From an uncultured Rhodospirillaceae bacterium (GTDB taxonomy: Bacteria; Pseudomonadota; Alphaproteobacteria; Rhodospirillales; UBA2165), in NCBI GenBank assembly GCA_964574215.1, contig CAZNLR010000010.1:9954-73953 (forward strand): 64,000 nt of DNA. The letters are read 5' to 3'. Below, in pieces: positions 43,895-60,586 of the stretch (position 1 is its first letter; each line of letters opens with the position of its first letter). The notes beneath the pieces are model-generated. The model did not search any database. It was not told the DNA's origin and saw only the letters and a list, made by a program, of their open reading frames with translations. The translations under genes and the position numbers were made by a program.

Positions 43895-45979
43895 TTATCG
43901 GCCAATAATTTTCTTCACCTGGTAGGCACCCCAGGTTTTACCGTCGCCCGATAGCCGCTCAAATTGATTGCGATGACTTTCCATCCATTCAAGTTCAAAA
44001 GACCCGGGTCCCAACGTGACAATTGTATCGATGTTCGCGTTCAACAGCCTCTGCCGCCAAGAAGCGTAGTCTGCCGTCTTTTCGATCCCGGCGATTAGCG
44101 GCGCCAGGGAGCCGTCTTTGGTTGCTGGAATATAGTGCAATTCGTTTTGATAGCGGCGGCCGAGGAAATAATAGAGGGGCCAGCCTCTCAGCAACGAATC
44201 CACGCCGGCGGTGACGGCAATGCGATGCGGTTCCGCAACTTGATCCAAGATTTTGGCGCCTTCCGCCCAATACCGGGCATGATTGGGAAAAACCGATGTC
44301 CGCTGAAGCAGGGAATATCGGACGCTGTCGCGGACCAGGCCGAGAGAAAGCGTGACGATCATGGAGAAACCGATAAAGAGTATCGGTTTGTAAAATCGTG
44401 GCATGCTCTGCCAAAGGGCATATGCTAATCCCAGTACGGCGAGAACGCCCAGGGATAGCCAAAAGTCGAGGCCCGGCCAAAATACGAGATTGAGCCCCAT
44501 ATGGAGGAAGCTCCAAATAATGACGACGATAAAAAGGGGTGTATTTAAATGCCTCCACGAATCCAGAAGATAAATGCTGAAAACAGTGCTCAACACGATG
44601 GCCGGAAGAAGGAATCGTCCGGAAAGCCGGTTGAACATCAATCGCGTGTAAGAGAAATCCGGCGAAAAGTAGGCGAACAGGGTTCCCACCAGCACGGCCG
44701 CTGCTAACAAGGCGTATTTCGGGTTAACAAAATAAAGTTTAGCCATGCCGAAAATGCCAACGGCTAGAAATGCCGCCGTTGGCCATCCTATATAAGTGAT
44801 GGTATTGGCGAGCGCCCGAAATTCGGTTTTCAAATCGTAGGGGTTCAGATCGGCAATCTGCTTCAGCCAGTCGAAATAAAGGCTTTCGGCACCAAGCCTC
44901 ACGCCGGCTACCTGCAAAGGAACAAAGCCGAATAGATAGCCGGTTTTCATATATTCCCGGATGGGCCAGGGGATGAAAACGGCGGCGAGAACGCAGCATG
45001 CCAGCAGGTAAAATATAAAATTTCCGGATTTTTTGTCGGCCTCGGTAGCCATTGCCCACGTCACAAGGCAAAACAGGAGCGCGACCGTGGTCATTGCCGA
45101 TAGCTTCAAACCGGCGGTCAGTCCCAGAGCCATAAAGCAGATGATCAAGTCGGCGCGGTTCCGGTTTCTGAGCCACCGCAAAGCGAACAAGAAGGATGCT
45201 GAAATAAAGACCGTTAGCGCCGTATCGTTCTTGCCGGTGCCGACGGCAAGATAAACAGCAGGGATCAGCATCAGATAGGTAACGGCGGTCCAGCGGCCCA
45301 AACCACGAATGCCTAGTTCACTGCATATGGCGATGATTGCAATGGCCAGAAAAATCCAGGCGGCTATATCCAATAGTGGCAATAGAAGATCGCTGTGAAA
45401 GGGCAGCATCAGCCACGCCATCAGAGATTCGTATCCACCGGGAAAACTGGCGTGCATGGAAAAATAGGCGGGGATCTGCAGCGAAAATCCGGTTCCCTCC
45501 TTGACCCACAAGGCCGCCCTTACGGCATGATAGGCCAGGGCGTCACCACCGATCACCGGGAGAATGAGAATGCGGGCCACGGTGAAAATGATGATGGCGA
45601 AGACCACATAGGCAAGCGGCCGGTAGGGTGATGAGCCAGCCATCCGAAGGACACGATACCAGCAACACAGATCGCTATGAACGGCGCGGCTGAAGGCTGT
45701 TGGCGTAAACTGCAGGTAGGTCCGACCGGCCAGCGCCAAGGCGGTTAGCACCAGGCAGGCCCAGGTAAGTGTAAAAGCGCCAAAGGCGAGCAGAATATGA
45801 AAGCAAAGGCTGGCGGTCCAGGCGCCGACAATGAAAGCGGCGCACCAGCGGACGGCGATGTTTGCTTGGGGTAACAGTTTCTGCACCGCGCCACAGGCGA
45901 TAAAAATAAATACCGACAGAATATAGACGGCTGGTAACGACCGGAGGAGAATATCGATTGTCAAATTGCCCAAAGTCAC
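43895..45979 (-). CDS. Large polytopic membrane protein with C-terminal soluble domain; possibly GT-C-type glycosyltransferase
   Basis: 694 aa with more than 12 predicted TM segments, followed by ~130 soluble residues. The first loop GGDALAYHAVRAALW is faintly reminiscent of ArnT/PMT-type GT-C enzymes. The functional call is weak. Confidence 0.3.
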   Translation of the reverse strand: MTLGNLTIDILLRSLPAVYILSVFIFIACGAVQKLLPQANIAVRWCAAFIVGAWTASLCFHILLAFGAFTLTWACLVLTALALAGRTYLQFTPTAFSRAVHSDLCCWYRVLRMAGSSPYRPLAYVVFAIIIFTVARILILPVIGGDALAYHAVRAALWVKEGTGFSLQIPAYFSMHASFPGGYESLMAWLMLPFHSDLLLPLLDIAAWIFLAIAIIAICSELGIRGLGRWTAVTYLMLIPAVYLAVGTGKNDTALTVFISASFLFALRWLRNRNRADLIICFMALGLTAGLKLSAMTTVALLFCLVTWAMATEADKKSGNFIFYLLACCVLAAVFIPWPIREYMKTGYLFGFVPLQVAGVRLGAESLYFDWLKQIADLNPYDLKTEFRALANTITYIGWPTAAFLAVGIFGMAKLYFVNPKYALLAAAVLVGTLFAYFSPDFSYTRLMFNRLSGRFLLPAIVLSTVFSIYLLDSWRHLNTPLFIVVIIWSFLHMGLNLVFWPGLDFWLSLGVLAVLGLAYALWQSMPRFYKPILFIGFSMIVTLSLGLVRDSVRYSLLQRTSVFPNHARYWAEGAKILDQVAEPHRIAVTAGVDSLLRGWPLYYFLGRRYQNELHYIPATKDGSLAPLIAGIEKTADYASWRQRLLNANIDTIVTLGPGSFELEWMESHRNQFERLSGDGKTWGAYQVKKIIGR

Positions 45980-46070: not shown

Positions 46071-47834
<1,764 letters not shown>

Positions 47835-47873
47835 CTAGCGGCGAAACATTGCTATTTGCTTGGGTATACGTCC

Positions 47874-47887
47874 TTGACTTAAATCAA
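47874..47887. promoter_or_regulatory. FNR/NNR/Dnr-type box in the nirS-nirI divergent spacer
   Basis: TTGAC-TTAA-ATCAA (TTGAT-N4-ATCAA consensus family), 45 nt upstream of the nirS ATG within the 201-bp divergent spacer. Confidence 0.7.
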
Positions 47888-48029
47888 GGCTGGGAAGGCC
47901 TAATTTGTGGATTAAGCGAGTAGTGTTATTTGATTTTACCGCTGAACCTTGCAGCAATTATGAATATGATTCGGTTGTGCTGATTCTGTTTGATAATACA
48001 TTAGAATAAAATGATATGAGAAACATATA

Positions 48030-50231
48030 GTGTATCAATTCACTAGGACTTTGTTTTATCCGATTCTGATATTGGCGGCGGTGATGCTGCCGGCCTGTAT
48101 GGGCTCGGGTTCCTTTGGCACCGCAGCATATGGCGCTGAGAAAATTCAGGGAGCCGACCAAGAAAAATACGCAAAATTTTTTCCTCACTTATTTCCCAAG
48201 GCGACTTATTTCGGCGGAATCTCCGGTTCGCCTCCTTCGGTGCCGGTCTTTAACGATCAATCACTAATCGGCTATGTATTTTTCTCTCGGCAAGTATCCG
48301 CTTCTGTCGGTTATTCGGGGAAACCGTTGAATGTCTTGGTCGGGCTTGATTTAGAAGGAACCATTACCGGCGTCAGGATCGTCGAGCATCATGAACCAAT
48401 TTTGGCCATCGGGATTACGGACAAGGATCTAAAAGAATTTACGCGGCAATATGTCGGGCTTAATGTCCGCAATCCCGTGCGCATCACCCGAAACCGGGAA
48501 GGAGACCAGGATGACAATACGCTGGATGCGGTCAGCGGCGCTTCAATTTCTTCTATCGTACTGAATGACGCCATAATTCGTTCGGCCAGAGCGGTGGCTC
48601 GTAGCCGCGGTCTATTGGGTAAGGCCGGCCAGCTTTTAGATTTCGATCAGTATTCCCCAGCCAGTTGGCAGGAACTGCTCGAAGAAGGTTCAATTGTCGA
48701 GCGTCATTTGACCATCAAACAGGCCGCGTCAATATTAGCTTCGAAGAAGGCAAGATTGTTCCCAGGCGGAGGCGGGCCGACCAACCTAATGTCATCTTTT
48801 ATTGACCTATCCTTTGGCTTGGCGACGCCGGCTCGGGTCGGACGTAACCTTATCGGCAGACACAGCATCAATGAAATTGTGGCGGGGTTATCGAATGGCG
48901 ACCAGTTATTGTTCCTTGCCGCCAATGGCTACTATTCTTTTCGTGGGCGGGCGTTTCGAAAAATCGGTTATTTCGACCGCATCAGTGTCGTTCAGGGAGA
49001 GCAGAGTTTTCGGCTAACTAAGAATGACTATGTGAGAATTGATCAGTTGCAGGTGGCCGGTGCTCCGGAATTTCGTGAAATTGCGATATTTAAAATTAGA
49101 AAATCAAGCGGTTTTAAAGCAAGCGAACCCTGGCGCCTGGACCTAACCATTGGCGGTGAAAAAGCGAACGGGGAAAAGGCCTTCTCCACCATATCTACAC
49201 TATATAAATTGCCAAAACGCTATTTTCGCAAGCTTGATCCATCGATCAGCATGGACGAACGCATTTGGCTTCAGGTTTGGGAAGAACGATTTGTCGAAAT
49301 CGTTGTCCTGGTTCTCGCTTTAACGGCGCTTACCGGATTTTTCTTTTTTCAGGACTGGGGCGCGCAGCGCCAGCGACTCTATGACATTACCCGCCTCTTT
49401 TTCCTGGTCTTCACGGTGATTGGCCTGGGCTGGTATACGGATGCCCAATTGTCGGTCATTAACGTTCTTACATTTATGCAATCATTATTGACCGAATTTC
49501 GCTGGGATTTCTTCCTGCTGGAACCGCTCATATTTATATTGTGGGGCGGAACGGCATTGTCTTTATTATTCTGGGGGCGGGGCGCTTTTTGCGGCTGGCT
49601 TTGTCCCTTTGGCGCTATGCAGGAATTGTTGGCCAAGTTTGCCCAATTCGTCCGCCTTCCCCAGCTTTCCTTACCCTGGGGCGTTCACGAAAGGCTTTGG
49701 CCTCTCAAATACATTGTTTTTGTCGGCCTGTTCGCCCTGTTCCTTGGTGACGAAGATTTGGCGTTGATGGGTACCGAGATAGAGCCCTTCAAAACAGCCA
49801 TCGTCATGGGATTTGACCGGGCTTGGCCATTTGTACTATATGCCGCAGTTTTGCTCGGTGTCGGCCTTTTTATTAACCGGTTTTTTTGCCGCTACATTTG
49901 TCCCCTCGGCGCTGCCCTAGCGATACCGGCGCGCGTTCGAATGTTCGAGTGGTTGAAAAGGCGTTGGCAGTGCGGCCTGCAGTGTCATATCTGTGCCGAC
50001 AAATGTCCCATTCAGGCCATTCATCCCGACGGACATATTAATCCCAACGAATGTATTTACTGCCTCAATTGTCAGGTTATTTATCATGACGATTCGGTGT
50101 GCCCGCCCCTCGTCGAGAAGCGCAAACGAAACGAAATGCGTCTCGACAAAAGTTTAGTAAAAAGGTTTGAAAAAGCCGAGCAGAAGGGAGAACAGGCGGA
50201 TTCGGTGGAAAGGTCCGAAAATCGTGAATAA
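48030..50231 (+). CDS. nirI: NirI/NosR-family membrane FMN/FeS protein
   Basis: 733 aa. It has a periplasmic FMN-bind motif (LDAVSGASISS), TM helices with CGWLCPFG / CRYICPLG motifs, and C-terminal ferredoxin-type CxxCxxCxxxCP motifs. It is divergent from nirS, as nirI is in Paracoccus. The GTG start at 48030 is uncertain. Confidence 0.85.
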   Translation: MYQFTRTLFYPILILAAVMLPACMGSGSFGTAAYGAEKIQGADQEKYAKFFPHLFPKATYFGGISGSPPSVPVFNDQSLIGYVFFSRQVSASVGYSGKPLNVLVGLDLEGTITGVRIVEHHEPILAIGITDKDLKEFTRQYVGLNVRNPVRITRNREGDQDDNTLDAVSGASISSIVLNDAIIRSARAVARSRGLLGKAGQLLDFDQYSPASWQELLEEGSIVERHLTIKQAASILASKKARLFPGGGGPTNLMSSFIDLSFGLATPARVGRNLIGRHSINEIVAGLSNGDQLLFLAANGYYSFRGRAFRKIGYFDRISVVQGEQSFRLTKNDYVRIDQLQVAGAPEFREIAIFKIRKSSGFKASEPWRLDLTIGGEKANGEKAFSTISTLYKLPKRYFRKLDPSISMDERIWLQVWEERFVEIVVLVLALTALTGFFFFQDWGAQRQRLYDITRLFFLVFTVIGLGWYTDAQLSVINVLTFMQSLLTEFRWDFFLLEPLIFILWGGTALSLLFWGRGAFCGWLCPFGAMQELLAKFAQFVRLPQLSLPWGVHERLWPLKYIVFVGLFALFLGDEDLALMGTEIEPFKTAIVMGFDRAWPFVLYAAVLLGVGLFINRFFCRYICPLGAALAIPARVRMFEWLKRRWQCGLQCHICADKCPIQAIHPDGHINPNECIYCLNCQVIYHDDSVCPPLVEKRKRNEMRLDKSLVKRFEKAEQKGEQADSVERSENRE

Positions 50232-50364
50232 AACAATGCTTTAATCCCTAAAATATGACGCTTTTTCTGAAATCCTTGCCGAAATCCAGGTAATTTCCCG
50301 GAATCTGGAGTTCGAATACCCGACGAATTTGATCGGATTTTTTTTCGGGGAATCTCAAAGGTCT

Positions 50365-50378
50365 TTGACTTAGGTCAA
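50365..50378. promoter_or_regulatory. FNR/NNR/Dnr-type box upstream of the heme-copper oxidase operon
   Basis: Perfect palindrome TTGAC-TTAG-GTCAA. It shares TCxTTGACTTA with the nirS box and lies 99 nt upstream of the first ATG (50478) of the operon. Confidence 0.65.
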
Positions 50379-50477
50379 GGACAGTCCTTTACCCCCCATG
50401 TTCAGTTGCAGGCTTAATGCGCTGGATCTGACGTCAGATGCCGGGGCTTTGTGGCAATCTAAACGAGGGGGACCATC

Positions 50478-50636
50478 ATGACGCCTTCCGACCAACCAAT
50501 GGATGAGCCGATTCCGTTCATGCAGCGGCTATTGGATAATCATTTCTTACTACTTTTTTTAGGAGTTGCTGTACCCACGGTACTTTATATCGTGTGGGGG
50601 ATCGTTGAGATCACGGCAATTCCCGTAGCTAAATAA
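50478..50636 (+). CDS. 52-aa single-pass membrane peptide (not in ORF track; candidate small oxidase subunit)
   Basis: ATG 50478 is preceded by GAGGGGGA (50465-50472). The product is MTPSDQPMDEPIPFMQRLLDNHFLLLFLGVAVPTVLYIVWGIVEITAIPVAK, ending at TAA 50634-50636. It has one clear TM helix and ends 17 nt before the subunit II start. Confidence 0.55.
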   Translation: MTPSDQPMDEPIPFMQRLLDNHFLLLFLGVAVPTVLYIVWGIVEITAIPVAK

Positions 50637-50653
50637 TAGAAGGGAGACACCAT

Positions 50654-51196
50654 ATGTCTATATTTCCTCCCGAAGAGCGCGTCTGGTGGAACACGCCTGT
50701 AGAGAAAACCGAAGTTCTCTGGGTCACCATCGCCTTCATCTGGGGTTTGATCATGTTCTTCATGATGCCCTATTGGCATTTCACCGGTAACCAGAATATG
50801 TCCAACGAGGCATATCAAATCAGCACTGACAGATATTCCGACCTCACTGAAGCTTTCGCGAAAAAATACAAAGTCCGTGAAGAAGGTGACACCGGCGTTC
50901 CCGTTGTTCGCCCGCCGGCAGGTTCCGACGTTTACCTGTTAGGTCGTCTTTGGGAGTGGTGGCCAATCCTCGAGCTTGAGAAAGGCAAAAGCTACCGCCT
51001 GCATCTTTCCTCGATGGATTACCAGCACGGCTTCTCCTTACAGCCGGAAAACATCAATATTCAGGTTCACCCCGGTTATGAATCGGTAATGACCGTAACA
51101 CCCACGACATCGGGTGAATTCGGCCTTATCTGTAACGAATTTTGCGGCATCGGCCATCACACCATGGTCAGCAAAATGTATGTCACCGATAAATAG
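50654..51196 (+). CDS. Heme-copper oxidase subunit II, CuA cupredoxin (ba3-like short form)
   Basis: 180 aa with one N-terminal TM helix. The complete CuA site is YQHGF ... CNEFCGIGHHTM. It aligns closely with my recollection of Thermus ba3 subunit II (ICNQYCGLGHQNM). Confidence 0.85.
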   Translation: MSIFPPEERVWWNTPVEKTEVLWVTIAFIWGLIMFFMMPYWHFTGNQNMSNEAYQISTDRYSDLTEAFAKKYKVREEGDTGVPVVRPPAGSDVYLLGRLWEWWPILELEKGKSYRLHLSSMDYQHGFSLQPENINIQVHPGYESVMTVTPTTSGEFGLICNEFCGIGHHTMVSKMYVTDK

Positions 51197-51209
51197 GAGG
51201 GCATGATAA

Positions 51210-52907
51210 ATGAGTAACGGTAATTTCCGTATCTGCCCGGACACCGGGTTTAAAGTTGATCTTCCCGGCGAAAAGCTGATCAAGATCAATGCTGTAACTG
51301 CTGTCGTCTTCCTTTTGATCGGCGGTCTCTTCGGCGTTCTCGTCGCCTTGACCCGTTGGCCGGAACTTCACATTCTGCCGGCTGACCTGTTCTACCTGGC
51401 GCTGACGGCGCATGGTCTCGATATCCTGCTGGTCTGGATTATCTTCTTCGAAATCGCCTTGTTGTATTTCTGTTCGTCGATTCTGCTGAATGTCAGATTG
51501 GCGATGCCGAAAATCGCCTGGCTGGCTTATTGGCTGATGCTGATTGGCGCTTTGATCACCAACGTCATCGTTTTGATGGGTGATTCGAATGTGATGTTCA
51601 CCTCTTATGTGCCGATGCAGGCCCATCCCGGGTTTTACCTTGGCATCATCATATTCGCCGTCGGCGCCTTGGTTGGTTGCGGTATCTTCTTCGGTACCCT
51701 GGTGATCGCCAAAAAGGAAAAAACCTATGAAGGTTCAGTTCCGCTGGTTACTTTTGGTGCGATAACGGCTGCCATTATTGCCGTATTCACCATCGCCTCC
51801 GGCGCGGTCATCCTGATCCCGACCTTGTTATGGTCGATGGATTTGATCTCCTACATCGATCCCTTGATGTACAAGATCGTCTGGTGGGCCATGGGACACT
51901 CTTCTCAGCAGATCAACGTTTCCGCCCATATCGCCGTATGGTACGCCATTGCCGCGATCCTGTTCGGCGCCAAACCGCTCTCTGAGAAAGTCAGCCGTTT
52001 CGCCTTCCTGATGTACATCCTGTTCCTGCAACTTGCTTCGGCTCACCACCTTCTGGTGGAACCGGCGCTCAGTTCCGAATGGAAAATCGTCAACACCTCC
52101 TACATGCTCTATCTGGCGGTGATGGCTTCCATGATCCACGGTCTGACAGTTCCGGGCGCGATCGAAGCTGCCCAGAGGAAAAAAGGTTACACCAACGGCT
52201 TGTTCGAATGGCTCCGCAAGGCGCCCTGGAGCAATCCGGTGTTCTCCGGCATGTTCCTGTCCTTGATCATGTTTGGCTTCCTCGGTGGTATCACCGGCGT
52301 CATCATGGGCGTCGAGCAGGTTAACATCATCATCCATAATACGCTGTACGTGCCAGGGCACTTCCACGGTACGGTTGCCGCGGGTACCACCTTGGCCTTC
52401 ATGGCGATAACCTACTGGCTGGTGCCGGTCCTCTTCCGGCGCGAGTTGATCCTGCCGGGTTGGGCCAAATGGCAGCCCTACATCTTCGCCATCGGCATCT
52501 CTTTGCTGTCTTTGGCTATGATGGGCGCTGGTACGTTGGGTGTTTCCCGCCGTCACTGGGACATCACCTTCGCCGACGCGGCGATCAAGTTTGATCACCC
52601 GGCCTTGGCGCATCTGATGATGGGTCTCAATGGTGTTGCGGCATTGATCTGCATGGTCGGTGGCTTCATGTTCATTGCCGTGATCGTGGGCTCCCTTCTG
52701 TGGGGTAAACATCGCGGATACGAACCGGCTCCGGAAGCGGCGGCCGAGGCCGAAGCGCCTCCTGCTTCGGCGATGTCGGCCCACGGCGATGCGGGCACCA
52801 TGGAAGTACCAGGGACATTTGTCCTGGCATTGGTCTTCCTGGCGACCTTCGTCCTCTACTACTTCGTGAACTGGAAGTTCTTGGCTTCCACGTGGGGTCT
52901 CAGCTAG
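51210..52907 (+). CDS. Heme-copper oxidase subunit I, B-family-like, lacking the cross-linked Tyr (candidate NO reductase catalytic subunit)
   Basis: 565 aa. The His ligands are retained (LTAHGLD; WWAMGH; SAHHLL; VPGHFHGTV). The helix VI motif reads GHSSQQINVSAH where ba3 has GHPIVYFWLLPAY. Confidence 0.75.
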   Translation: MSNGNFRICPDTGFKVDLPGEKLIKINAVTAVVFLLIGGLFGVLVALTRWPELHILPADLFYLALTAHGLDILLVWIIFFEIALLYFCSSILLNVRLAMPKIAWLAYWLMLIGALITNVIVLMGDSNVMFTSYVPMQAHPGFYLGIIIFAVGALVGCGIFFGTLVIAKKEKTYEGSVPLVTFGAITAAIIAVFTIASGAVILIPTLLWSMDLISYIDPLMYKIVWWAMGHSSQQINVSAHIAVWYAIAAILFGAKPLSEKVSRFAFLMYILFLQLASAHHLLVEPALSSEWKIVNTSYMLYLAVMASMIHGLTVPGAIEAAQRKKGYTNGLFEWLRKAPWSNPVFSGMFLSLIMFGFLGGITGVIMGVEQVNIIIHNTLYVPGHFHGTVAAGTTLAFMAITYWLVPVLFRRELILPGWAKWQPYIFAIGISLLSLAMMGAGTLGVSRRHWDITFADAAIKFDHPALAHLMMGLNGVAALICMVGGFMFIAVIVGSLLWGKHRGYEPAPEAAAEAEAPPASAMSAHGDAGTMEVPGTFVLALVFLATFVLYYFVNWKFLASTWGLS

Positions 52908-52931
52908 AGGGCTTTGCCACATATAATGTTC

Positions 52932-52965
52932 GGGGGCGGACTGAGAAATTTCTCAGTCCGCCCTC
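52932..52965 (+). promoter_or_regulatory. Strong intercistronic hairpin between subunit I and senC
   Basis: Perfect 13-bp stem GGGCGGACTGAGA/TCTCAGTCCGCCC (52934-52946 / 52951-52963) with an AATT loop. It is followed after 5 nt by only TTTT. It could be an attenuating terminator or an mRNA-stabilising element. Confidence 0.5.
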
Positions 52966-53036
52966 AGCATTTTGGGGTAAAATTTCCCTGCTGACTGTAG
53001 GGTTATTTTTGAATTTAAATAAAGTAAAATAGTACG

Positions 53037-53951
53037 ATGTTCAAAATTGAGATACGCAGAATACTGATGTTGGCTGGTTTGGCGCTGGCAGTGGCACCGA
53101 TGCTGGCGGCGCCGGAAAATCTGAGCATCGTTACACCGGCCTTCGGTGATGAAAACGGAAAACGCAAGTTCACCCGCGAATCGTTCCCGGGAGCGTCCAA
53201 GTTCAATCCCGAATCGGCCTACAAGTACAGCCAATCGGCCGTCGGGAAGACCATCGGCAATTACCGGTTCCTCGGTACTGACGGAAAAAGACTGAACCTG
53301 GATCAGTTCAGGGGAGAACCTTTGATCATCAGTATGGTTTATTCCAGCTGTTTCGATATCTGTCCGGCCATTACCATGAATCTGGCTTCCGCCGTCGACA
53401 AGGCGCGGAAAGTTTTGCCTGATAAAAAGTTCAACGTGATATCCATTGGTTTCGACACGTTGCACGATTCGCCCGCGGCCATGAAATTGTTCGCCCGCCA
53501 ATATGACGTCAGCGGCGACAATTGGAAGGTGGTCAGCGGCTCACCCGATGCGGTGGAGCGTTTGGCCGCCGATACCGGCTTCATATATTACAGGTCAGCC
53601 AGAGGATTCGACCATCTGATGCAGACCACCCTGGTGGACGCCGACGGCAAAGTGGACACCCAGATTTACGGCGAAAACTTCGACGCCACCCTTTTGGTTG
53701 AGCCCCTAAAACAACTTTATTTCGGCGGTATTGCCTCGGTGACGAACGTCGAATCCTTTGTCAATCGCGTGCGCCTGTTCTGCACCATCTATGATCCCAA
53801 GACAGACGCTTATAAATTTGATTACTCTTTTTTCATCGGCATGGCGTTAAGCGCTATCGTCCTCTTGCTGATGGGGAATTTTGTCGTCCGCAATGTGTGG
53901 CGGTTGTGGTTTTCCGATCACAAATCCGGCAACGGAACAGCAATGTCTTGA
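53037..53951 (+). CDS. senC: Sco1/SenC-family copper chaperone/thiol-disulfide protein with C-terminal TM extension
   Basis: 304 aa with a signal/anchor, the thioredoxin-fold CxxxCP motif (SSCFDICPAI) and the conserved His context GFDHL. An extra C-terminal TM segment is present (FFIGMALSAIVLLLMGNFVV). Confidence 0.8.
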   Translation: MFKIEIRRILMLAGLALAVAPMLAAPENLSIVTPAFGDENGKRKFTRESFPGASKFNPESAYKYSQSAVGKTIGNYRFLGTDGKRLNLDQFRGEPLIISMVYSSCFDICPAITMNLASAVDKARKVLPDKKFNVISIGFDTLHDSPAAMKLFARQYDVSGDNWKVVSGSPDAVERLAADTGFIYYRSARGFDHLMQTTLVDADGKVDTQIYGENFDATLLVEPLKQLYFGGIASVTNVESFVNRVRLFCTIYDPKTDAYKFDYSFFIGMALSAIVLLLMGNFVVRNVWRLWFSDHKSGNGTAMS

Positions 53952-53981
53952 TCTCCTGAAACTTTAAATTAGAATTGTCTA

Positions 53982-55586
53982 ATGTTAGAAAAAATCCAAA
54001 CTCCGCTGCAGGCGGCACTGTTAATCTTTGAGGGCTGGTTCGACCGCCCGTTAGGTCCCGACTGGAATCCGCTCCGCCATCTGGGCGCTTTGTCCTTCTT
54101 CTTTTTCTGGGTGGTCGTGGTTAGCGGCATTTATGTGTACATCTTTTTTGAAACCAGCGTATCCGGTGCCTACAGCTCTATCGAGCGCATGACCGTCGAT
54201 CACTGGTATTTCAGCGGCGTTATGCGAAGTTTTCACCGTTATGCCTCTGACGCCATGGTGGTGGTCGTTCTGCTGCATATGTTCCGTGAATTTATCATGG
54301 ACCGGTATCGCGGTATCCGCTGGTTTACCTGGGTCAGCGGAATTCCCACCATCTGGCTGCTTTATGCGTCGGGCATCGGCGGCTATTGGCTGGTGTGGGA
54401 CGAATTCGCCCAGTATCTCATCATCGCGTCTTCCGAATGGCTCGACTGGTTGGGTATTTTCGGTGAGCCTCTGGCCAATAATTTCCTGACCCGTGAAGCC
54501 TTCACGGACCGGATGTTTTCGCTGTTGCTGTTTCTCCATATCGCCATTCCGCTGTTCCTGCTGATCGCCAGTTGGATTCACGTCATCAAGATTTCCCGGC
54601 CCCGGATCAATCCGCCCAAAGGATTGGCCATCGGCACCATCGCCATGATGACCGTGTTGTCCTTGATAAAGCCGGCCGTCAGCGATACGCCCGCCGACCT
54701 CAGCATTGTGCCGCAGGAACTCAACCTGGATTGGTTCTATGCCCTGCTTTATCCGTTGTATGACAAGTGGGGCGCAGGGGCGCTGTGGATGATCACGGTC
54801 GGTGTGTCGTCCTTCTTGACCATCCTGCCTTGGTTGCCGCCGCAGAAAATCAATGATTCCGCCGAAGTCGACAATCTGAACTGCAACGGTTGTTCCCGTT
54901 GCTACACGGACTGCCCGTTCGGCGCCGTCACCATGCAGCCGCGAACCGACGGCAGGCCTTATCCGCGTATCGCCGAAGTCAATCCGGATATCTGTACGGC
55001 GTGCGGCATCTGCGTCGGGGCTTGCCCGACGGCGACACCGTTTCGCAGTCAGGATATGCTGGTAACGGGGATCGACCTGCCCAGGTACCGGTTGACGGAA
55101 CTGCGGGAAAGCACGGACAAGTCACTGGCGCAGTTGAAAGAGAAAGTATCCGGCGATAAGCCGCGCATCATTGTCTATGGCTGTGATTTCGGTATCGACG
55201 TTAAGCAGATCGACGCGCCCAACGTGGTGGTCACCAAACTCCCCTGTATCGGTATGCTGCCGCCGTCGTTTGTCGACTACATCCTGATGCGCGGTAAGGC
55301 CGACGGGGTCATGTTGACCGGTTGCCGGGAGGGTGATTGTTTCCACCGCTTCGGCATTCAATGGACGGAGCAGCGGATGGCCGGTGACCGGGATCCTTAC
55401 CTGAGAAAACGGGTGCCGGTTGAACGGGTGCGCACCTGCTGGGGTGCGGTAACAGACTCCAAAAAGCTTCATCAGGAAATAGCCGAGTTCGAGGCGCATT
55501 TGTCGGCGTTGCCGACGATCGAGGTTCTATCTCCTGAAAAACCGCGCAAACCCGTTGCGGACAAACCGAAAGGGGAGGCTGCGTGA
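53982..55586 (+). CDS. Fusion protein: di-heme cytochrome b (bc1/b6 N-terminal type) + 2x[4Fe-4S] ferredoxin + MvhD/FlpD-like domain
   Basis: 534 aa. The four His are in the cyt b pattern (RSFHRY, VLLHMF..GYWLVW, LFLHIA, SWIHVI). The ferredoxin motifs are CNGCSRCYTDCP and CTACGICVGACP. The MvhD-like segment is PRIIVYGCDFG...LPCIGMLPPSFVDYILMRGKADGVMLTGCREGDCFHRFG. Confidence 0.75.
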   Translation: MLEKIQTPLQAALLIFEGWFDRPLGPDWNPLRHLGALSFFFFWVVVVSGIYVYIFFETSVSGAYSSIERMTVDHWYFSGVMRSFHRYASDAMVVVVLLHMFREFIMDRYRGIRWFTWVSGIPTIWLLYASGIGGYWLVWDEFAQYLIIASSEWLDWLGIFGEPLANNFLTREAFTDRMFSLLLFLHIAIPLFLLIASWIHVIKISRPRINPPKGLAIGTIAMMTVLSLIKPAVSDTPADLSIVPQELNLDWFYALLYPLYDKWGAGALWMITVGVSSFLTILPWLPPQKINDSAEVDNLNCNGCSRCYTDCPFGAVTMQPRTDGRPYPRIAEVNPDICTACGICVGACPTATPFRSQDMLVTGIDLPRYRLTELRESTDKSLAQLKEKVSGDKPRIIVYGCDFGIDVKQIDAPNVVVTKLPCIGMLPPSFVDYILMRGKADGVMLTGCREGDCFHRFGIQWTEQRMAGDRDPYLRKRVPVERVRTCWGAVTDSKKLHQEIAEFEAHLSALPTIEVLSPEKPRKPVADKPKGEAA

Positions 55587-56089
55587 TGGGCCGTATTTTT
55601 GATATTCTCGGACAAGGCGTTGCTTATCTTCTGTTTGCGTTGTTTGTCGGGTATTTCGCCAACTCACCGCCTTACAGCCCGTTGGAAAAGGATCAGGCGC
55701 TGGTCAGGCTGAGCATCTCCTACCCCGGACAGCGCATTGCCGAATGCCGCAAGCTGTCGGCCAAGGAACTGCGCGCGAAGGCTCACAACATGCGCAAAGC
55801 CTTCGATTGCCCGCGGGAGCGTCACGCCGTGCGGATCGAGGTGCTGATGGATGGCAAGCCGTTATACGACGGCATCGTCTCGCCCTCGGGTTTGGCCAAT
55901 GACGGTAAATCCCTTTTCTACGAAAACTTTCCCGTTCCCGCCGGCGAACATACGCTGATGGCCCGGCTTTACGACAACGGCGCTAATAAAAAAGCCGGGT
56001 TTCAGGGTGAAAGAGCAGTGCAGCTTGCACCCGGCAAAGTCGCCATCGTCGGTTTCGACCATCGGGATCATAAAATTATGATCAAGTAG
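55583..56089 (+). CDS. Membrane-anchored protein of unknown function
   Basis: 168 aa. GTG 55583 or ATG 55586 overlaps the upstream stop, and AAAGGGGAGG SD lies upstream. It has one N-terminal TM helix (VAYLLFALFVGYF) followed by a soluble domain with no motif I recognise. Confidence 0.6.
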   Translation: MMGRIFDILGQGVAYLLFALFVGYFANSPPYSPLEKDQALVRLSISYPGQRIAECRKLSAKELRAKAHNMRKAFDCPRERHAVRIEVLMDGKPLYDGIVSPSGLANDGKSLFYENFPVPAGEHTLMARLYDNGANKKAGFQGERAVQLAPGKVAIVGFDHRDHKIMIK

Positions 56090-56103
56090 GGCGGCCCAAA
56101 AAT

Positions 56104-56323
56104 GGGGACAGGATCGTTTAGTATCCCCGCTACCGCCAATACCCAACCGAGTTCACAAAGCACACAGAGGCTGCCGGAATGGGACGGGGACATGAACTTG
56201 TTTCGTGTCCCCGAACCGTCCATCGGGAATTAAGTTAAGTATCGTGTCCCCGAACCGTCGTCCCCGAACAGTCCTGTCCTTTTTTCAAGCCTATTAACGG
56301 CCTGTCCCCCTCTCGGAGGACAG
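56104..56323. repeat. Cluster of short GGGGACA / TGTCCCC repeats including an 18-nt direct repeat
   Basis: TCGTGTCCCCGAACCGTC occurs at 56203-56220 and 56242-56259, with a partial third copy GTCCCCGAACAGTC at 56260-56273. GGGGACA occurs at 56104-56110 and 56186-56192. TGTCCCC also occurs at 56303-56309. Confidence 0.7.
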
Positions 56324-56509
56324 ACGCTGGCTGCGCGTGCGCCTATGAATCACCGTTAGAATTTCAATTTTGCCCATTTATATGGCTGAAATTAAACCTT
56401 TTCCTCCCATTTTTCAAATAATTCTAAAATTAACTAAAAAATTCTAACTTCTATTTGATTTTTTACTAAAGGTTTGATATCTTGTTGGCTGATTGACGAG
56501 GCCCCAAAA

Positions 56510-57157
56510 ATGCAAGAATTAAAATCAACTTATAAAACCGAGAAAAAAAGCCGCCGCCGCCGGGAAATTCTGGATGGGGCCGCTGCCGTAATTGCCGAGC
56601 ACGGCTATTTTGCCGCCTCAATGAAAGATATCGCTGATCGGCTCGATCTGAGACCCGGCAGTCTTTACTATTATCTCAAATCGAAGGAAGCCGCCCTCGA
56701 AGAAATCTGCTGGGACGGTGGCATGGAATATGTCTATTACGTCGAACGACTGGCCAAAAGCGGCGCGCCCGCCATGGAAATAATAAGATCAGCCATTAGT
56801 CATCACCTGAGAAATGAAAAACGCGATTACGTTGAATGTTTCGTTTACAACCGGCGTCATCTCGGTGGTGCAGTGGCCGATGGGTTGAACGATGTGGCGC
56901 GGCGATATCTGCGCGCCTGGATTGGGGTTTTTGAACAAGGCATAGAGGAAGGCGTTTTTTCGCTGGGTCTTGATTGCCGATTTGCTGCCACGACGGCGTT
57001 GTCGGTGGTAAACGGCGCGACGCTTGCCTTGAGGGGCAAAGGATCGGAGGAATCGGACCGGTATATTCGTCAAACCACGGAATTTTTTCTCACGGGACTG
57101 GGTGTCTCCGGATGCGGTGAGCCCGCCTACGTAAAAAAGAAAGTTGCCATCGGATAG
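56510..57157 (+). CDS. TetR/AcrR-family transcriptional regulator
   Basis: ATG 56510 is preferred over the TTG 56474 of the track. The HTH is RRREILDGAAAVIAEHGYFAASMKDIADRLDLRPGSLYYYLKSKEAAL. Confidence 0.85.
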   Translation: MQELKSTYKTEKKSRRRREILDGAAAVIAEHGYFAASMKDIADRLDLRPGSLYYYLKSKEAALEEICWDGGMEYVYYVERLAKSGAPAMEIIRSAISHHLRNEKRDYVECFVYNRRHLGGAVADGLNDVARRYLRAWIGVFEQGIEEGVFSLGLDCRFAATTALSVVNGATLALRGKGSEESDRYIRQTTEFFLTGLGVSGCGEPAYVKKKVAIG

Positions 57158-57223: not shown

Positions 57224-57871
57224 ATGACTGACCAATCAAAATTAGTAGACCTAATCGCCGGTATGGACGAAGAGCCCGCCGTCAAATTATCGGTCGAACT
57301 CATGGATGCGGGTACGCCGCCGGAAGATATTCTGGCCGCCTGCCGCCAAGCCATGGATATCGTCGGTAAGAAATTCGAGGAAGGCGAATTCTTTATTCCC
57401 GAGTTGATTCTGGCCGGTGAAATGCTGGAACAGATCGGTAACGAGGTGAAACCTCGCATTAAGGACACTGCCGGCCCGGCCAAGGAAACGTTGGGTACGG
57501 TGATCATCGGTACGGTGCACGGTGATTTGCACGATATCGGTAAAAATATCGTGACCTTCATGTTGGACGTGAACGGCTACGAAGTCATTGATCTTGGCGT
57601 CGACGTCAAACCGCAGGCTTTCATCGATGCTATCAAGGAAAGCTCGGCGCCCGTGGTGGGTCTCAGCGGTTTCCTGACCTTGGCGTTCGATTCCATGAAA
57701 GAAACGGTTGAAGCCATTACCGAGGCCGGTCTCCGCGATAACATTAAAATCATGATCGGCGGCGGACAGGTCGATGAACAAATCCGGACTTACACCGGCG
57801 CCGATTCCTTCGGTCTCAATGCCATGACCGCGGTATCGCAATGCCGGGAATGGATTGCCGAAGCCGCCTAA
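57224..57871 (+). CDS. Corrinoid (cobalamin-binding) protein of a methyltransferase system
   Basis: 215 aa with a GGAAGGAGG SD. It has an N-terminal helical cap plus a B12-binding Rossmann domain with DxHxxG (GDLHDIGKN) and GGG (IMIGGGQV). Confidence 0.85.
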   Translation: MTDQSKLVDLIAGMDEEPAVKLSVELMDAGTPPEDILAACRQAMDIVGKKFEEGEFFIPELILAGEMLEQIGNEVKPRIKDTAGPAKETLGTVIIGTVHGDLHDIGKNIVTFMLDVNGYEVIDLGVDVKPQAFIDAIKESSAPVVGLSGFLTLAFDSMKETVEAITEAGLRDNIKIMIGGGQVDEQIRTYTGADSFGLNAMTAVSQCREWIAEAA

Positions 57872-57896
57872 GCGGTAAACATGACACCAATCTAAG

Positions 57897-59321
57897 ATGG
57901 GTGGGGAAATGCTCGCACTACGAACATGGTCGGCACAGCATGCGCGTTTGGTCGAGATCGTCTATACGGCGTTCTCGCAGGCGGTAAAGCTGTTTACGCC
58001 CATTTTCCGGCGGGTTCCCCAATCCCTTTTAGAGGGGCCGGTCAAAGGCGTCGAACGTTGGGCCAAAGGCTTGATGTTCGATTGCCAGATGTGCGGCCAA
58101 TGCGTGCTCAGTGAAACGGGTATGTCGTGCCCCATGAACTGCCCCAAAAGTCTGCGCAACGGTCCCTGCGGCGGGGTATTCGAAGACGGCGGCTGCGAAG
58201 TGAAGCCGGAAATGCGCTGTGTCTGGTTTAACGCCTGGGACGGCGCCGGCCTGATGAAAAAAGGTGATACGATAAAAGATATCCGCCGACCACTGCGCCA
58301 AAGAATGGCTGGTAAATCAACCTGGGTTCCGATCATGCGGGGCGAGGGTGCCCGCCCGCCGTGGCTGGAGGATGATGACATTGACAGCGACTCCTCTGTC
58401 ACAAAACCGCCGCTCAGCCGTCTTCAGGAAATTTTGCAGGCGGGCGAGTTTGCCGTTACCTGCGAATATAATCCCCCGAATACGGTGATAACCGCCGATA
58501 TTGTGTCCAAAGCGGCATCGTTGGTCGAGGCGTGTGACGCCGTCAATGTCACCGATTGCGCCGGCGCGTATGTCCACATCTCCAGTCTGGCCACCTGCGC
58601 TATCTTGACCCGGGAAGGCGCCGAGCCGGTCATGCAGATGACGTGCCGAGACCGCAATCGCCTGGCCGTTCAGGCTGATATCATGGGGGCCGCGGCGCTG
58701 GGAATTAAGAACATTTTATGCATGACCGGTGATGCGGTCGAGGGCGGTGATCATCCCGACGGCAAGCCGGTTTTCGATCTGGATTCGTCTTCCCTGATCA
58801 GGACCGTTAAGCATATGCGGGATGAAAAAAGTTTTGTGACGGGGAAAGATCTGAAATCAGCCCCCAACCTTTTTATCGGTGGCACGGCCAATCCCATGGC
58901 GCCCTCGACGGAGATCGAAATCAACCGGATGATTAAAAAAGCCGCTGCCGGGGCGCAGTTTTTCCAAACTCAGTTCTGCTATGACATGGAACGGTTCGAG
59001 GCTTTCATGAGCGCCTACCGCGAAACCGGACTGCAAAAATCACGTCACCTGATTATCGGGATCGGCCCTTTGAATTCTGCCCGGGCGGCGCGTTGGATGA
59101 GGGAAAATATTCCCGGTGTCAGAATCCCGCGGGCCATCATCGACCGAATGGAAAGCGTCACAGACCAGAAAGCCGAAGGCCGCGAAATCTGCATAGAAAC
59201 CATCAACCAGTTGAAACATATAGACGGCGTATCCGGCGTTCACATCATGGCCATCAACCAGGAAAGCGCCATTCCGGAAATTGTAAAACGGGCTGAAATC
59301 GGCCCACAATTTAGGAACTAG
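57897..59321 (+). CDS. metF: Fusion of a MetV-type Cys-rich (MTHFR_C) domain with methylenetetrahydrofolate reductase (MetF)
   Basis: 474 aa. The N-terminal ~150 aa carry CQMCGQC-x8-CPMNCPK-x5-PCGG. The remainder is a MetF TIM barrel (FAVTCEYNPP, VNVTD, MQMTCRDRNR, NILCMTGD). Confidence 0.75.
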   Translation: MGGEMLALRTWSAQHARLVEIVYTAFSQAVKLFTPIFRRVPQSLLEGPVKGVERWAKGLMFDCQMCGQCVLSETGMSCPMNCPKSLRNGPCGGVFEDGGCEVKPEMRCVWFNAWDGAGLMKKGDTIKDIRRPLRQRMAGKSTWVPIMRGEGARPPWLEDDDIDSDSSVTKPPLSRLQEILQAGEFAVTCEYNPPNTVITADIVSKAASLVEACDAVNVTDCAGAYVHISSLATCAILTREGAEPVMQMTCRDRNRLAVQADIMGAAALGIKNILCMTGDAVEGGDHPDGKPVFDLDSSSLIRTVKHMRDEKSFVTGKDLKSAPNLFIGGTANPMAPSTEIEINRMIKKAAAGAQFFQTQFCYDMERFEAFMSAYRETGLQKSRHLIIGIGPLNSARAARWMRENIPGVRIPRAIIDRMESVTDQKAEGREICIETINQLKHIDGVSGVHIMAINQESAIPEIVKRAEIGPQFRN

Positions 59322-59328
59322 GGATATT

Positions 59329-60567: not shown

Positions 60568-60586
60568 TTTTAAGGAGGGGGAACCC

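Follow-up and report, generated by a model that had tools for sequence, protein, structure and literature searches.

In O2 reduction by heme-copper oxidases, an active-site tyrosine supplies the fourth electron. In the ba3 oxidase of Thermus thermophilus (1EHK, 3S8F), which reduces O2, this residue is Y237, cross-linked to H233. The eNOR enzymes, a published family (Hemp & Gennis 2008; Murali et al. 2024, PNAS), are diagnosed by a glutamine at the active-site Tyr position (Table A4, PMC8756737; Murali et al. 2024, PMC11214002). The same position holds Asn in sNOR and bNOR, Glu in cNOR and qNOR and Asp in gNOR (PMC8756737). The sole eNOR that has been assayed, from R. marinus DSM 4252, binds heme As and reduces NO with a low turnover of 0.68 per s, and O2 was reduced with none of the donors tried (PMC11214002). 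R. marinus has no other NOR, yet it denitrifies to N2, and N2O builds up when NosZ is blocked (PMC11214002). The same work describes that the equivalent of ba3 S309 is retained in eNOR and bNOR and missing in sNOR, that cNOR and qNOR have no conserved cytoplasmic proton channel, and that CtaA is encoded in many, not all, eNOR operons (PMC11214002). The published eNOR operon consists of subunit II, subunit I, (heme o synthase), sco1 and an unknown protein (Ferrigenium preprint). Degli Esposti et al. 2022 (PMC8879329) describe marine Rhodospirillales-like MAGs in which a 'ba3-a1' oxidase occurs together with SCO and cd1 nitrite reductase, and they explicitly equate this 'ba3-a1' subtype of marine oxycline Alphaproteobacteria with eNOR.

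We analysed a stretch of DNA of 64,000 nucleotides (the window) that carries a six-gene operon, in which the reading frames are intact throughout:

50478..50636, + strand: 52-aa single-helix membrane peptide, conserved immediately ahead of subunit II in 80 loci
50654..51196, + strand: subunit II, one TM helix and a CuA cupredoxin domain, weak COX2/CoxB matches
51210..52907, + strand: subunit I, predicted eNOR catalytic subunit, 565 aa, COX1 and ba3 matches
53037..53951, + strand: SCO1/SenC-type copper chaperone whose C-terminal extension is conserved (Pfam SCO1-SenC, E 1.9e-13)
53982..55586, + strand: fusion of cytochrome b (helices A-F), 2x[4Fe-4S] and an MvhD/FlpD-like domain (Pfam Cytochrome_B, Fer4, FlpD)
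55583..56089, + strand: 168-aa membrane-anchored protein with two conserved Cys, following the cytochrome b fusion in 72 loci

It is very probable that this locus encodes an eNOR-type NO reductase, an enzyme of two subunits with CuA that has branched off from the B-type (ba3-like) heme-copper oxidases. A preliminary description of this DNA had proposed, without naming the family, an NO-reducing member of the superfamily, which is supported both by the Gln at the Tyr position and by membership in the eNOR clade. The novelty that it attached to a Tyr-less enzyme does not stand, as the eNOR family has already been published; the locus confirms this work on one more genome.

The subunit I ORF (51210-52907, + strand) matches Pfam COX1 with an E-value of 1.9e-65, and among solved structures it is nearest in sequence to subunit I of Thermus ba3 (1ehk, E 1.5e-47). 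The HMMER alignment, for which the translation was checked, places GHSSQQINVSAHIAVWY of the window subunit I opposite GHPIVYFWLLPAYAIIY of ba3, and the alignment to Thermus ba3 made earlier by eye proved to be identical. H230 thereby corresponds to the CuB ligand H233 and Q234 to Y237; H279/H280 correspond to H282/H283, H68 to H72 and H384/H386 to H384/H386. In agreement with the preliminary description, all metal-ligand His are retained in this alignment (H68, H230, H279, H280, H384 and H386), with H68 and H386 at the low-spin heme, H384 at the high-spin heme and H230, H279 and H280 at metal B. The replacement of the cross-linked Tyr by Gln was likewise reproduced with HMMER, with Q234 at the position of ba3 Y237 and the CuB His H230 kept. 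Compared to ba3, the window protein differs in Y237 to Gln, V236 to Q, W239 to N, T312 to H, F272 to Y and A85 to E; the six His ligands, the CuA spacing, about 13 long helices and a small extra subunit are common to both. The AlphaFold model of subunit I (pLDDT 86, pTM 0.89, approximately 13 long helices) returned ba3 structures as top matches in Foldseek (TM 0.78-0.80). Judged by its sequence, subunit I is a member of the heme-copper superfamily, with the B-type (ba3-like) oxidases as its nearest relatives.

Two segments of subunit I carry the metal-B ligands:

51897..51917, + strand: codons H230-S-S-Q233-Q234-I-N236, metal-B His and Gln at the position of the cross-linked Tyr
52014..52049, + strand: helix VII from Y269 (ba3 F272) through H279-H280 (metal-B ligands)

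Conservation was assessed in 333 distinct, non-identical homologues that span Proteobacteria, Thermus, Chloroflexi, Armatimonadota and haloarchaea. H230, Q233, Q234 and N236 are each present in 333/333, so that the motif H-x-x-Q-Q-x-N is invariant, and this pattern is beyond chance. Y269, H279 and H280 are each found in 332/333, as is Y298 in helix VIII. About 100 positions of subunit I are at least 97% conserved across the 333 sequences from several phyla, and relatives occur in more than 546 species genomes. At position 386, the low-spin heme ligand is His in 302/333 and Lys in 31/333 (Thermus and allies). Some members with a Lys low-spin ligand are thus common to the window clade and the eNOR family, for which Murali et al. 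described such a ligand in 'some eNORs' (PMC11214002).

The preliminary description had also seen a polar helix VI, built from seven polar residues, as accompanying the loss of the Tyr. Of these residues, only Q233, Q234 and N236 are invariant; S231, S232, S238 and H240 vary among the 333 homologues (P/G/A at 231, A at 232, A at 238, M/Q at 240). As a marker of Tyr loss the polar helix fails: the remodelling is not specific to Tyr loss because a sister group that keeps the Tyr (H-x-x-Q-Y-x-N) shares Q233 and N236. E81, Y269 and H310 are also common to this sister group; Y298 is confined to the Tyr-less clade, its position being taken by L/I/V in the sister group. In helix VI, Tyr loss is tracked by Y-to-Q at 234 only, together with a few changes outside this helix, such as Y298. 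Going by the residues shared with the sister group, most of the polar pocket is older than the Tyr loss. The helix VII Tyr that had been placed 10 residues ahead of the HH pair was confirmed as Y269, the single Tyr of this helix. In the cbb3 oxidase of P. stutzeri, the cross-linking Tyr of helix VII lies 6 residues ahead of the HH pair.

The window protein belongs to a clade that is monophyletic with 99.5% NJ bootstrap. This clade includes WP_015717644.1 from Thermus, which has 46% identity to the window protein (E 1e-99, motif GHGAQQVN) and is used as eNOR in PMC8756737, as well as a Paramagnetospirillum homologue (71% identity) and a haloarchaeal member. The placement as eNOR goes via WP_015717644.1 and other literature-named members, and the eNOR criteria were those of the running text of Murali et al. 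and of Table A4 of PMC8756737. The nearest genome match is a marine Rhodospirillaceae MAG with 97% identity. The host range of the clade (Proteobacteria, Thermus, Chloroflexi, haloarchaea) is that of the eNOR family, with which the locus also shares B-family kinship, the CuA subunit II, Gln at the Tyr position, a K-channel with the S309 equivalent, and Sco.

The features of other members of the superfamily do not fit. For cNOR, qNOR and nNOR, the residue at H+4 is Gln and not Glu, and the partner subunit is a CuA cupredoxin and not cytochrome c; for gNOR, all three metal-B His are present (no Asp) and the CuA site is complete. A B-family O2 reductase of the ba3 type does not fit either, with Gln234 instead of the His-Tyr cofactor (GHPxVYFW). 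cNOR and qNOR (NorBC, NorZ) resemble the window protein in the proposed reaction and in the absence of the His-Tyr cofactor, whereas their FeB-ligating Glu at H+4 and their cytochrome c subunit or quinol site are absent from it. In a tblastn search of plasmids for the sNOR/bNOR references, all matches beyond the Gln-Gln clade were Tyr-containing B-family oxidases, from Deinococcus, Haloarcula, Geobacillus, Burkholderia, Variovorax and Janthinobacterium. B-family genes on the Deinococcus, Haloarcula, Geobacillus and Burkholderia plasmids retain GH(P/A)xVYFW, where the window protein has Gln234.

The expectation had been that K- and D-channel residues would be missing, as in cNOR. Contrary to this, subunits I and II retain a K-channel analogue: S307 and Y245 are equivalent to ba3 S309 and Y248 (both 99.7% conserved), T313 to ba3 T315 (T/S across the clade), H310 replaces ba3 T312, and Y269 is located on helix VII. 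E20 of subunit II stands ahead of the helix, roughly at the position of ba3 E15, and is at least 90% conserved. A K-channel-like residue set is conserved in the clade, and proton conduction along it is predicted. The retained K-channel analogue agrees with the published description of eNOR.

The CuA site of subunit II, reported as intact in the preliminary description, is indeed complete (H125, C160, E162, C164, H168 and M171, with ba3-like spacing), and its ligands are at least 90% conserved in 84 sequences. The 52-aa peptide shows the conserved pattern LDN.FLLL...P...Y..WG and, by analogy, is probably the counterpart of ba3 subunit IIa. The SCO1/SenC protein, whose gene is present in 80 loci, has a conserved CxxxCP motif and a conserved His in GFDH. 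The 168-aa protein has no Pfam or NCBIfam matches; its position makes it a candidate for the 'eNOR scaffold protein' described in the Ferrigenium preprint. In its layout, the window operon agrees with the published eNOR operon (Ferrigenium preprint). Unlike the loci of most relatives, it carries no heme o synthase, CtaA or hemerythrin gene, which is not a family-defining difference. CtaA and heme o synthase gave no tblastn match anywhere in the 64 kb window, and the hemerythrin gene that is present in or beside the operon in relatives is absent from the window. Heme o synthase occurs in 56/86 related loci and CtaA in 8/86, and relatives with these two genes are found in the window clade and in the eNOR family alike. 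Their absence here is compatible with eNOR membership, because the literature speaks of 'many' operons and not of all.

Among cultured relatives, the closest one found was Paramagnetospirillum caucaseum SO-1 (71% identity), a congener of M. magnetotacticum MS-1. In its operon, as in the window, subunit II is followed by subunit I; next comes a heme o synthase of the UbiA type, and CtaA is located upstream. The window operon differs in having no heme o synthase. From strain MS-1, a 'cytochrome a1-like hemoprotein' was reportedly purified in 1993 and sequenced in 2000. Tanimura and Fukumori are said to have described in 2000 the genes mcaII-mcaI-hosA and a poor oxidase activity in M. magnetotacticum. 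Murali et al. name this 'cytochrome a1-like hemoprotein' as an eNOR (PMC11214002).

A less-explored feature of proteobacterial eNOR operons is the near-universal gene for the cytochrome b/Fe-S/MvhD-like fusion. It is present in 73/81 proteobacterial-type loci, and the contigs of the remaining 8 stop short of that position. In PDB profile searches, the protein matched cytochrome b6 (E 1e-24) and MvhD (E 9e-12). With its AlphaFold model (pLDDT 80), Foldseek returned bc1 cytochrome b over approximately 295 columns and MvhD with a TM of 0.75, and the cytochrome b part has a PEWY-like DWFY motif. We regard it as speculative, and rather doubtful, that the proteobacterial eNOR is more than a plain two-subunit enzyme and works with the fusion protein as a Rieske-less module, through which the quinol pool, or a low-potential carrier in the cytoplasm, would be coupled to NO reduction. 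Along one possible route, the electrons from quinol oxidation would be split: one would go to the NO/N2O couple with its very high potential, and the other would cross the membrane to the Fe-S/MvhD domain. For Ferrigenium, a 2026 preprint put forward a related idea.

The operon is preceded by genes and putative regulatory sites as follows:

46071..47828, - strand: nirS, cytochrome cd1 nitrite reductase (NO-producing), Pfam Cytochrom_D1 E 4.4e-148 and a cytochrome c domain
47874..47887, no strand: putative FNR/DNR-type palindrome TTGACTTAAATCAA between nirS and the nirI-like gene, 46 nt ahead of the nirS start
48030..50231, + strand: NosR/NirI-like membrane flavo-Fe-S protein, divergent from nirS (NCBIfam NosR; Pfam FMN_bind and Fer4_5)
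50365..50378, no strand: putative FNR/DNR-type palindrome TTGACTTAGGTCAA, located 100 nt ahead of the first operon gene

Of the 86 loci compared, 18 have a nirS homologue at most 8 kb from the oxidase-like genes, and the nirS / nosR-like / oxidase layout recurs in several of the loci. The NosR/NirI-like gene (48030..50231) matches NCBIfam NosR with an E-value of 3.5e-217, under the equivalog cut-off, and presumably is linked to the NirI of Paracoccus. The pattern TTGAYN4RTCAA has only two matches in the 64 kb window, compared to 0.22 expected. An exact TTGA-N6-TCAA is located at most 300 nt upstream of the small ORF in 49/79 related loci, where about 0.03 are expected per 300 nt. When one mismatch to the FNR consensus was allowed, counts were not beyond chance, and the exact half-site pattern is the informative one. 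A promoter and terminator scan of 47700-56600 gave no excess over shuffled sequence. A partial screen of the window ORFs returned no nosZ.

In the proposed mechanism, periplasmic donors (cytochrome c or cupredoxin) would reduce CuA, and electrons would travel from there via the low-spin heme to the heme/metal-B centre, both as in the eNOR family; metal B would be Fe or Cu. At this centre, NO made by NirS would be coupled according to 2NO + 2e- + 2H+ -> N2O + H2O, for which two electrons would be required and a Tyr radical would not. Protons would probably be taken from the cytoplasm via the K-channel analogue, and the step would be electrogenic. By analogy with the family, O2 would not be reduced by the window eNOR.

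It is very unlikely that the enzyme is still an O2 reductase whose redox Tyr has moved to Y269 in helix VII or to Y298 in helix VIII in a cbb3-like manner. Both residues are found in 332/333 homologues, Y298 is specific to the Tyr-less clade, and a switch of helix has a precedent in the C-family (Hemp et al.). Y269, however, is probably not a replacement Tyr, because the sister group that keeps the helix VI Tyr also has it, and its place on the helix is 10 residues (about 15 Å) below the HH pair. In addition, Murali et al. report no Tyr migration, and the R. marinus eNOR reduced O2 with none of the donors tried (PMC11214002). An assignment to another Tyr-less NOR family, be it the norSY-senC-type sNOR of ammonia oxidisers or bNOR/qCuANOR, is suggested by the SCO1/SenC gene directly after subunit I; ammonia oxidisers encode their sNOR in a norSY-senC-orf1 cluster. 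Sco is also regular in eNOR operons (Ferrigenium preprint; PMC8879329), and SenC adjacency is rejected as proof of sNOR because it is standard there. Moreover, published descriptions set sNOR and bNOR (qCuANOR) apart: they have Asn where the window clade has an invariant Gln (Q234), the S309 equivalent that is missing in sNOR is conserved here to 99.7% (S307), and the window clade holds literature-designated eNORs. Such an assignment is highly improbable.

With a somewhat better claim, though still unlikely, the enzyme could have another role, such as NO detoxification only, NO dismutation or reduction of another small oxidant, with the NO reduction measured in the family as a side activity. 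The single eNOR assayed has a turnover of only 0.68 per s (PMC11214002), and the operon partners include unexplained ones, namely the cytochrome b/Fe-S/MvhD-like fusion, the 168-aa protein and, in relatives, hemerythrin. On the other hand, R. marinus denitrifies to N2 with eNOR as its only NOR and accumulates N2O with NosZ blocked (PMC11214002), eNOR gave the most abundant heme-copper oxidoreductase transcripts under denitrifying conditions in the Ferrigenium preprint, and the window has the nirS linkage and FNR/DNR-type boxes. A decaying, non-functional copy of a ba3-type oxidase might be read from the loss of a residue essential for O2 reduction and from the public annotation of relatives as 'cytochrome c oxidase subunit I'. 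Its probability is close to nil: the frames of the six-gene operon are intact, conservation reaches at least 97% at about 100 positions of the 333 sequences, and relatives are present in more than 546 species genomes. A pseudogene is refuted by these conservation data, the conservation being too strong.

Reading the locus as an eNOR has consequences for annotation and for the host. In annotations, eNOR genes routinely appear as 'cytochrome c oxidase subunit I' or 'cbb3-type oxidase', and as a consequence genome surveys miss the NO-to-N2O step in many organisms. In the host, which is probably a marine Rhodospirillaceae-like bacterium, NirS and eNOR would give a pathway from nitrite to N2O, and this pathway would bear on how much N2O is budgeted for oxygen-poor waters. 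NO reduction by this enzyme would conserve energy, unlike that by cNOR, provided that the retained K-channel is functional.

The subunit I gene lies within a six-gene unit, preceded by denitrification-type genes. The following features are considered here.

46071-47828, nirS, divergent from the NosR/NirI-like gene
47874-47887, palindrome TTGACTTAAATCAA, 46 nt upstream of nirS
48030-50231, NosR/NirI-like gene, directly upstream of the operon
50365-50378, palindrome TTGACTTAGGTCAA, 100 nt upstream of the operon
50478-50636, gene 1, small peptide of 52 aa, single helix
50654-51196 (+), subunit II, CuA ligands H125, C160, E162, C164, H168 and M171
51210-52907 (+), gene 3, subunit I, intact open reading frame of 565 codons
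51450-51452 (+), E81 of subunit I, helix II, ba3 A85; invariant in eNOR and the Tyr-retaining sisters, absent in B-family oxidases
52101-52103 (+), Y298 of subunit I, helix VIII, ba3 V300; invariant only in the Tyr-less clade
53037-53951 (+), gene 4, SCO1/SenC copper chaperone
53982-55586 (+), gene 5, fusion of cytochrome b, two [4Fe-4S] motifs and an MvhD/FlpD-like domain, 534 aa
55583-56089, gene 6, membrane-anchored protein of 168 aa

Subunit I matches Pfam COX1 (E = 1.9e-65) and lies far under the NCBIfam equivalog cut-offs for aa3, bo3, cbb3 and SoxB oxidases. In HMMER searches, its nearest solved relatives were many entries of subunit I of the Thermus thermophilus ba3 oxidase (E about 1e-47). 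An AlphaFold model built from 58 homologues (pLDDT 86, pTM 0.89) has about 13 long helices and ba3 as its top structural matches (TM about 0.8, about 26% identity); the PDB copy searched contained no closer structure. Residue equivalences were taken from the HMMER alignment to ba3 and from a 363-sequence MAFFT alignment including ba3 residues 26-511. Both place H230 at ba3 H233, Q234 at ba3 Y237, H279/H280 at H282/H283, H68 at H72 and H384/H386 at H384/H386, which reproduces the by-eye alignment of the preliminary description. The active-site codons were read again from the DNA and gave GHSSQQINVSAHI. Thus, the CuB histidine is kept, the cross-linked tyrosine is replaced by glutamine, and the HH pair and the heme ligands are intact. 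The helix VII tyrosine, Y269, lies 10 residues ahead of the HH pair as described, and the CuA site of subunit II retains its ligands. Since all these points check out, the factual statements of that description are correct with one qualification, which concerns conservation: the helix VI residues are polar as stated, but only Q233, Q234 and N236 are conserved, whereas S231, S232, S238 and H240 vary in the family. In subunit II, the His-to-Cys spacing of the CuA site is 35 residues, as in ba3, and a conserved glutamate (E20) directly N-terminal to the membrane helix is presumably at about the position of ba3 E15.

Homologues of subunit I number in the thousands in the protein database (8000 candidates, all with E <= 1e-10), and relatives are encoded in at least 546 species-representative genomes. 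Among 333 non-identical sequences bearing the motif H-x-x-Q-Q-x-N (the Gln-Gln clade), none lacks H230, Q233, Q234 or N236, and each of H279, H280, Y245, Y269, S307, H310, E81, N295 and Y298 is found in 332. These sequences come from Alpha-, Beta- and Gammaproteobacteria, Thermus, Armatimonadota, Gemmatimonadota, Chloroflexi (Thermomicrobium, Thermoflexus, Caldilineales) and one haloarchaeon. Because conservation is near-complete across so many lineages, the pattern is more than chance. Among genomes, a marine Rhodospirillaceae MAG comes closest to the window (97%), and a protein identical to subunit I is present in several metagenome assemblies.

Several Tyr-less nitric oxide reductases derived from the B family have been defined in the literature. 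The active-site Tyr position holds Gln in eNOR, Asn in sNOR and the Bacillus CuA-NOR (bNOR), Asp in gNOR and Glu in cNOR/qNOR (PMC8756737 Table A4, after Hemp & Gennis 2008). The window protein resembles eNOR in carrying Gln234 at this position. According to Murali et al. 2024 (PMC11214002), the channel serine S309 of ba3 is kept in eNOR and bNOR and lost in sNOR, some eNORs ligate the low-spin heme by His and Lys, and many eNOR operons carry CtaA. Here, S307 (ba3 S309) is conserved, position 386 is Lys in 31 of the 333 clade members, those of Thermus and allies, and the gene of the 71% identical Paramagnetospirillum caucaseum homologue is flanked by genes for CtaA and a UbiA-type heme o synthase. 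The clade also includes WP_015717644.1 (P0326; motif GHGAQQVN), the Thermus sequence in the eNOR alignment of PMC8756737, which is 46% identical to the window protein (E = 1e-99). In a neighbour-joining tree with 200 bootstraps, the Gln-Gln clade was recovered in 99.5% of replicates, with the window protein next to Paramagnetospirillum. Judged by its sequence, the window protein shows each listed eNOR trait and is a typical member of this family, and its clade holds an eNOR designated in the literature; the earlier reading as an NO-reducing member of the superfamily is supported. The Thermus homologues have a Lys as low-spin heme ligand (GHFKG) and are plasmid-borne (T. thermophilus plasmid pTthSNM6-6b, 5983-7668, locus L002). 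Their neighbours include a multicopper oxidase, a cytochrome P460 gene and an Rrf2 regulator; the accessory genes for SCO and cytochrome b are missing.

A sister group retains the tyrosine (H-x-x-Q-Y-x-N; P0129, P0132 from a Hodarchaeales MAG, P0134 from a Thermoproteota MAG, and P0141) and is placed with the Gln-Gln clade in 82% of neighbour-joining bootstraps. It probably corresponds to the 'K-family' of O2 reductases, which reportedly groups with eNOR. The Tyr-retaining state is probably ancestral, with eNOR arising by Y-to-Q from an ancestor like this group. The preliminary description had tied the polar pocket to the loss of the tyrosine. This holds for Y234Q, but most of the pocket is older than the loss, since the sister group already carries Q233, N236, E81, Y269 and H310. 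The changes accompanying the loss are Y234Q, Y298, A303, V364, T194 and a fixed N295. Models of these families contain no migrated tyrosine able to make the cofactor, according to Murali et al. In three other homologues (P0192 from a Dehalococcoidia MAG, P0194 and P0229), helix VI reads F-H-(V/I)-x-H-Y-(V/I)-P and the HH pair gives way to 'FLYH', with tyrosine at the first metal-B histidine. They form their own clade (100% bootstrap), for which no match to a named family was found.

Residues of the K and D channels had been expected to be absent; instead, the channel equivalents S307, Y245 (ba3 Y248) and T/S313 (ba3 T315) are conserved. At the position of ba3 T312 the clade has an invariant His310, and the invariant Y269 is among the channel-region residues. 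This residue set agrees with the view of Murali et al. 2024 that a K-channel analogue is retained in eNOR, which may be electrogenic.

By homology, electrons would enter the window enzyme at CuA and be relayed by the low-spin heme to the heme/metal-B centre, where two NO would be coupled to N2O, a two-electron reaction that requires no Tyr radical. Murali et al. report that purified R. marinus eNOR reduced NO at 0.68 per s (25 C) and showed no O2 reduction whichever donor was tried; they describe R. marinus as having no other NOR, yet denitrifying to N2. In Ferrigenium straubiae under denitrifying conditions, eNOR genes were the most highly transcribed of the heme-copper genes, and their proteins were also detected.

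Gene order was compared by tblastn over 86 loci, 81 of them proteobacterial-type, and is kept in essentially all of the latter. Heme o synthase is inserted between subunit I and SCO in 56 of the 86 loci, hemerythrin is added 3′ of the last gene in 60, and CtaA is nearby in 8; by tblastn, all three are absent from the entire 64 kb of the window. L007, the MAG locus of 97% identity, is reduced in the same way, and the TetR gene that follows is also the same. Within 8 kb of related operons, nirS occurs in 18 loci and a NosR-like gene in 9. The 168-aa protein has no family match in Pfam or NCBIfam. Directly downstream of nirS, 43895-45979 (-) encodes a 694-aa polytopic membrane protein with no Pfam match and no counterpart in related loci. 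On the other side, 3′ of the TetR gene, 57224-61834 (+) encodes a B12-binding protein, an MTHFR-like protein and two URO-D-like (methyltransferase-type) proteins, which points to a system of corrinoid-dependent methyl transfer or demethylation unrelated to eNOR. A terminator-like hairpin followed by a T-run lies between subunit I and SCO (52986-53002, +); such sites are in total no more frequent in the region than in shuffles, and it may be chance.

The fusion gene is present in 73 of the 81 loci, the other 8 contigs stopping short of its position; it is thus the rule here, whereas a preprint on Ferrigenium described genes of this kind as 'rather unusual' for eNOR operons and speculated that they might couple to NAD+ reduction. 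Homologues are publicly annotated as 'hydrogenase iron-sulfur subunit'. The N-terminal half matches cytochrome b6 and cytochrome b (E = 1e-24), and Foldseek aligned about 295 columns of the model to bc1 cytochrome b. Helices A-F and all four heme histidines (H85, H99, H186, H200) are present. By inspection, an invariant D250-W251 in 'LDWFY' stands in place of PEWY, the quinol-oxidation-site motif of cytochrome b. The C-terminal part matches polyferredoxin and MvhD (E = 9e-12; TM 0.75 to 5odc_D). With six helices and a topology like that of other cytochromes b, the Fe-S part should lie on the cytoplasmic side. There is no Rieske gene near the fusion gene, and no solved structure has its architecture. 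On a metagenome contig with identical subunit I (L091, 5773-7349), the fusion was called as two genes of 218 and 309 aa, either through a frameshift or assembly error or as a genuine split form.

The pattern TTGAYN4RTCAA, that of FNR/DNR/NNR half-sites, has only two matches in the window, against 0.22 expected, and these are the near-identical palindromes upstream of nirS and the operon, both of the form TTGAC-N4-RTCAA. In the upstream regions of L007-L086, 49 of the 79 related loci have an exact TTGA-N6-TCAA no more than 300 nt before the small ORF; the chance expectation is about 0.03 per 300 nt (about 20-fold over background). With palindromes at both genes and this enrichment, it seems likely that the eNOR operon is co-regulated with nirS under low O2 or NO. 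No regulator gene for the palindromes was identified in the window.

As a typical eNOR, the object is already known. The family was proposed in 2008 and shown biochemically in a 2021 preprint and a 2024 paper. It had been purified unknowingly from Magnetospirillum in 1993; the 'cytochrome a1-like' protein of M. magnetotacticum is named as eNOR by Murali et al. A 2022 paper also noted it in marine oxycline Alphaproteobacteria, whose 'ba3-a1' oxidase, accompanied by SCO and cd1 nitrite reductase, was equated there with eNOR. What remains of interest are the accessory genes and their conservation, the regulatory boxes and a polar pocket older than the Tyr loss.
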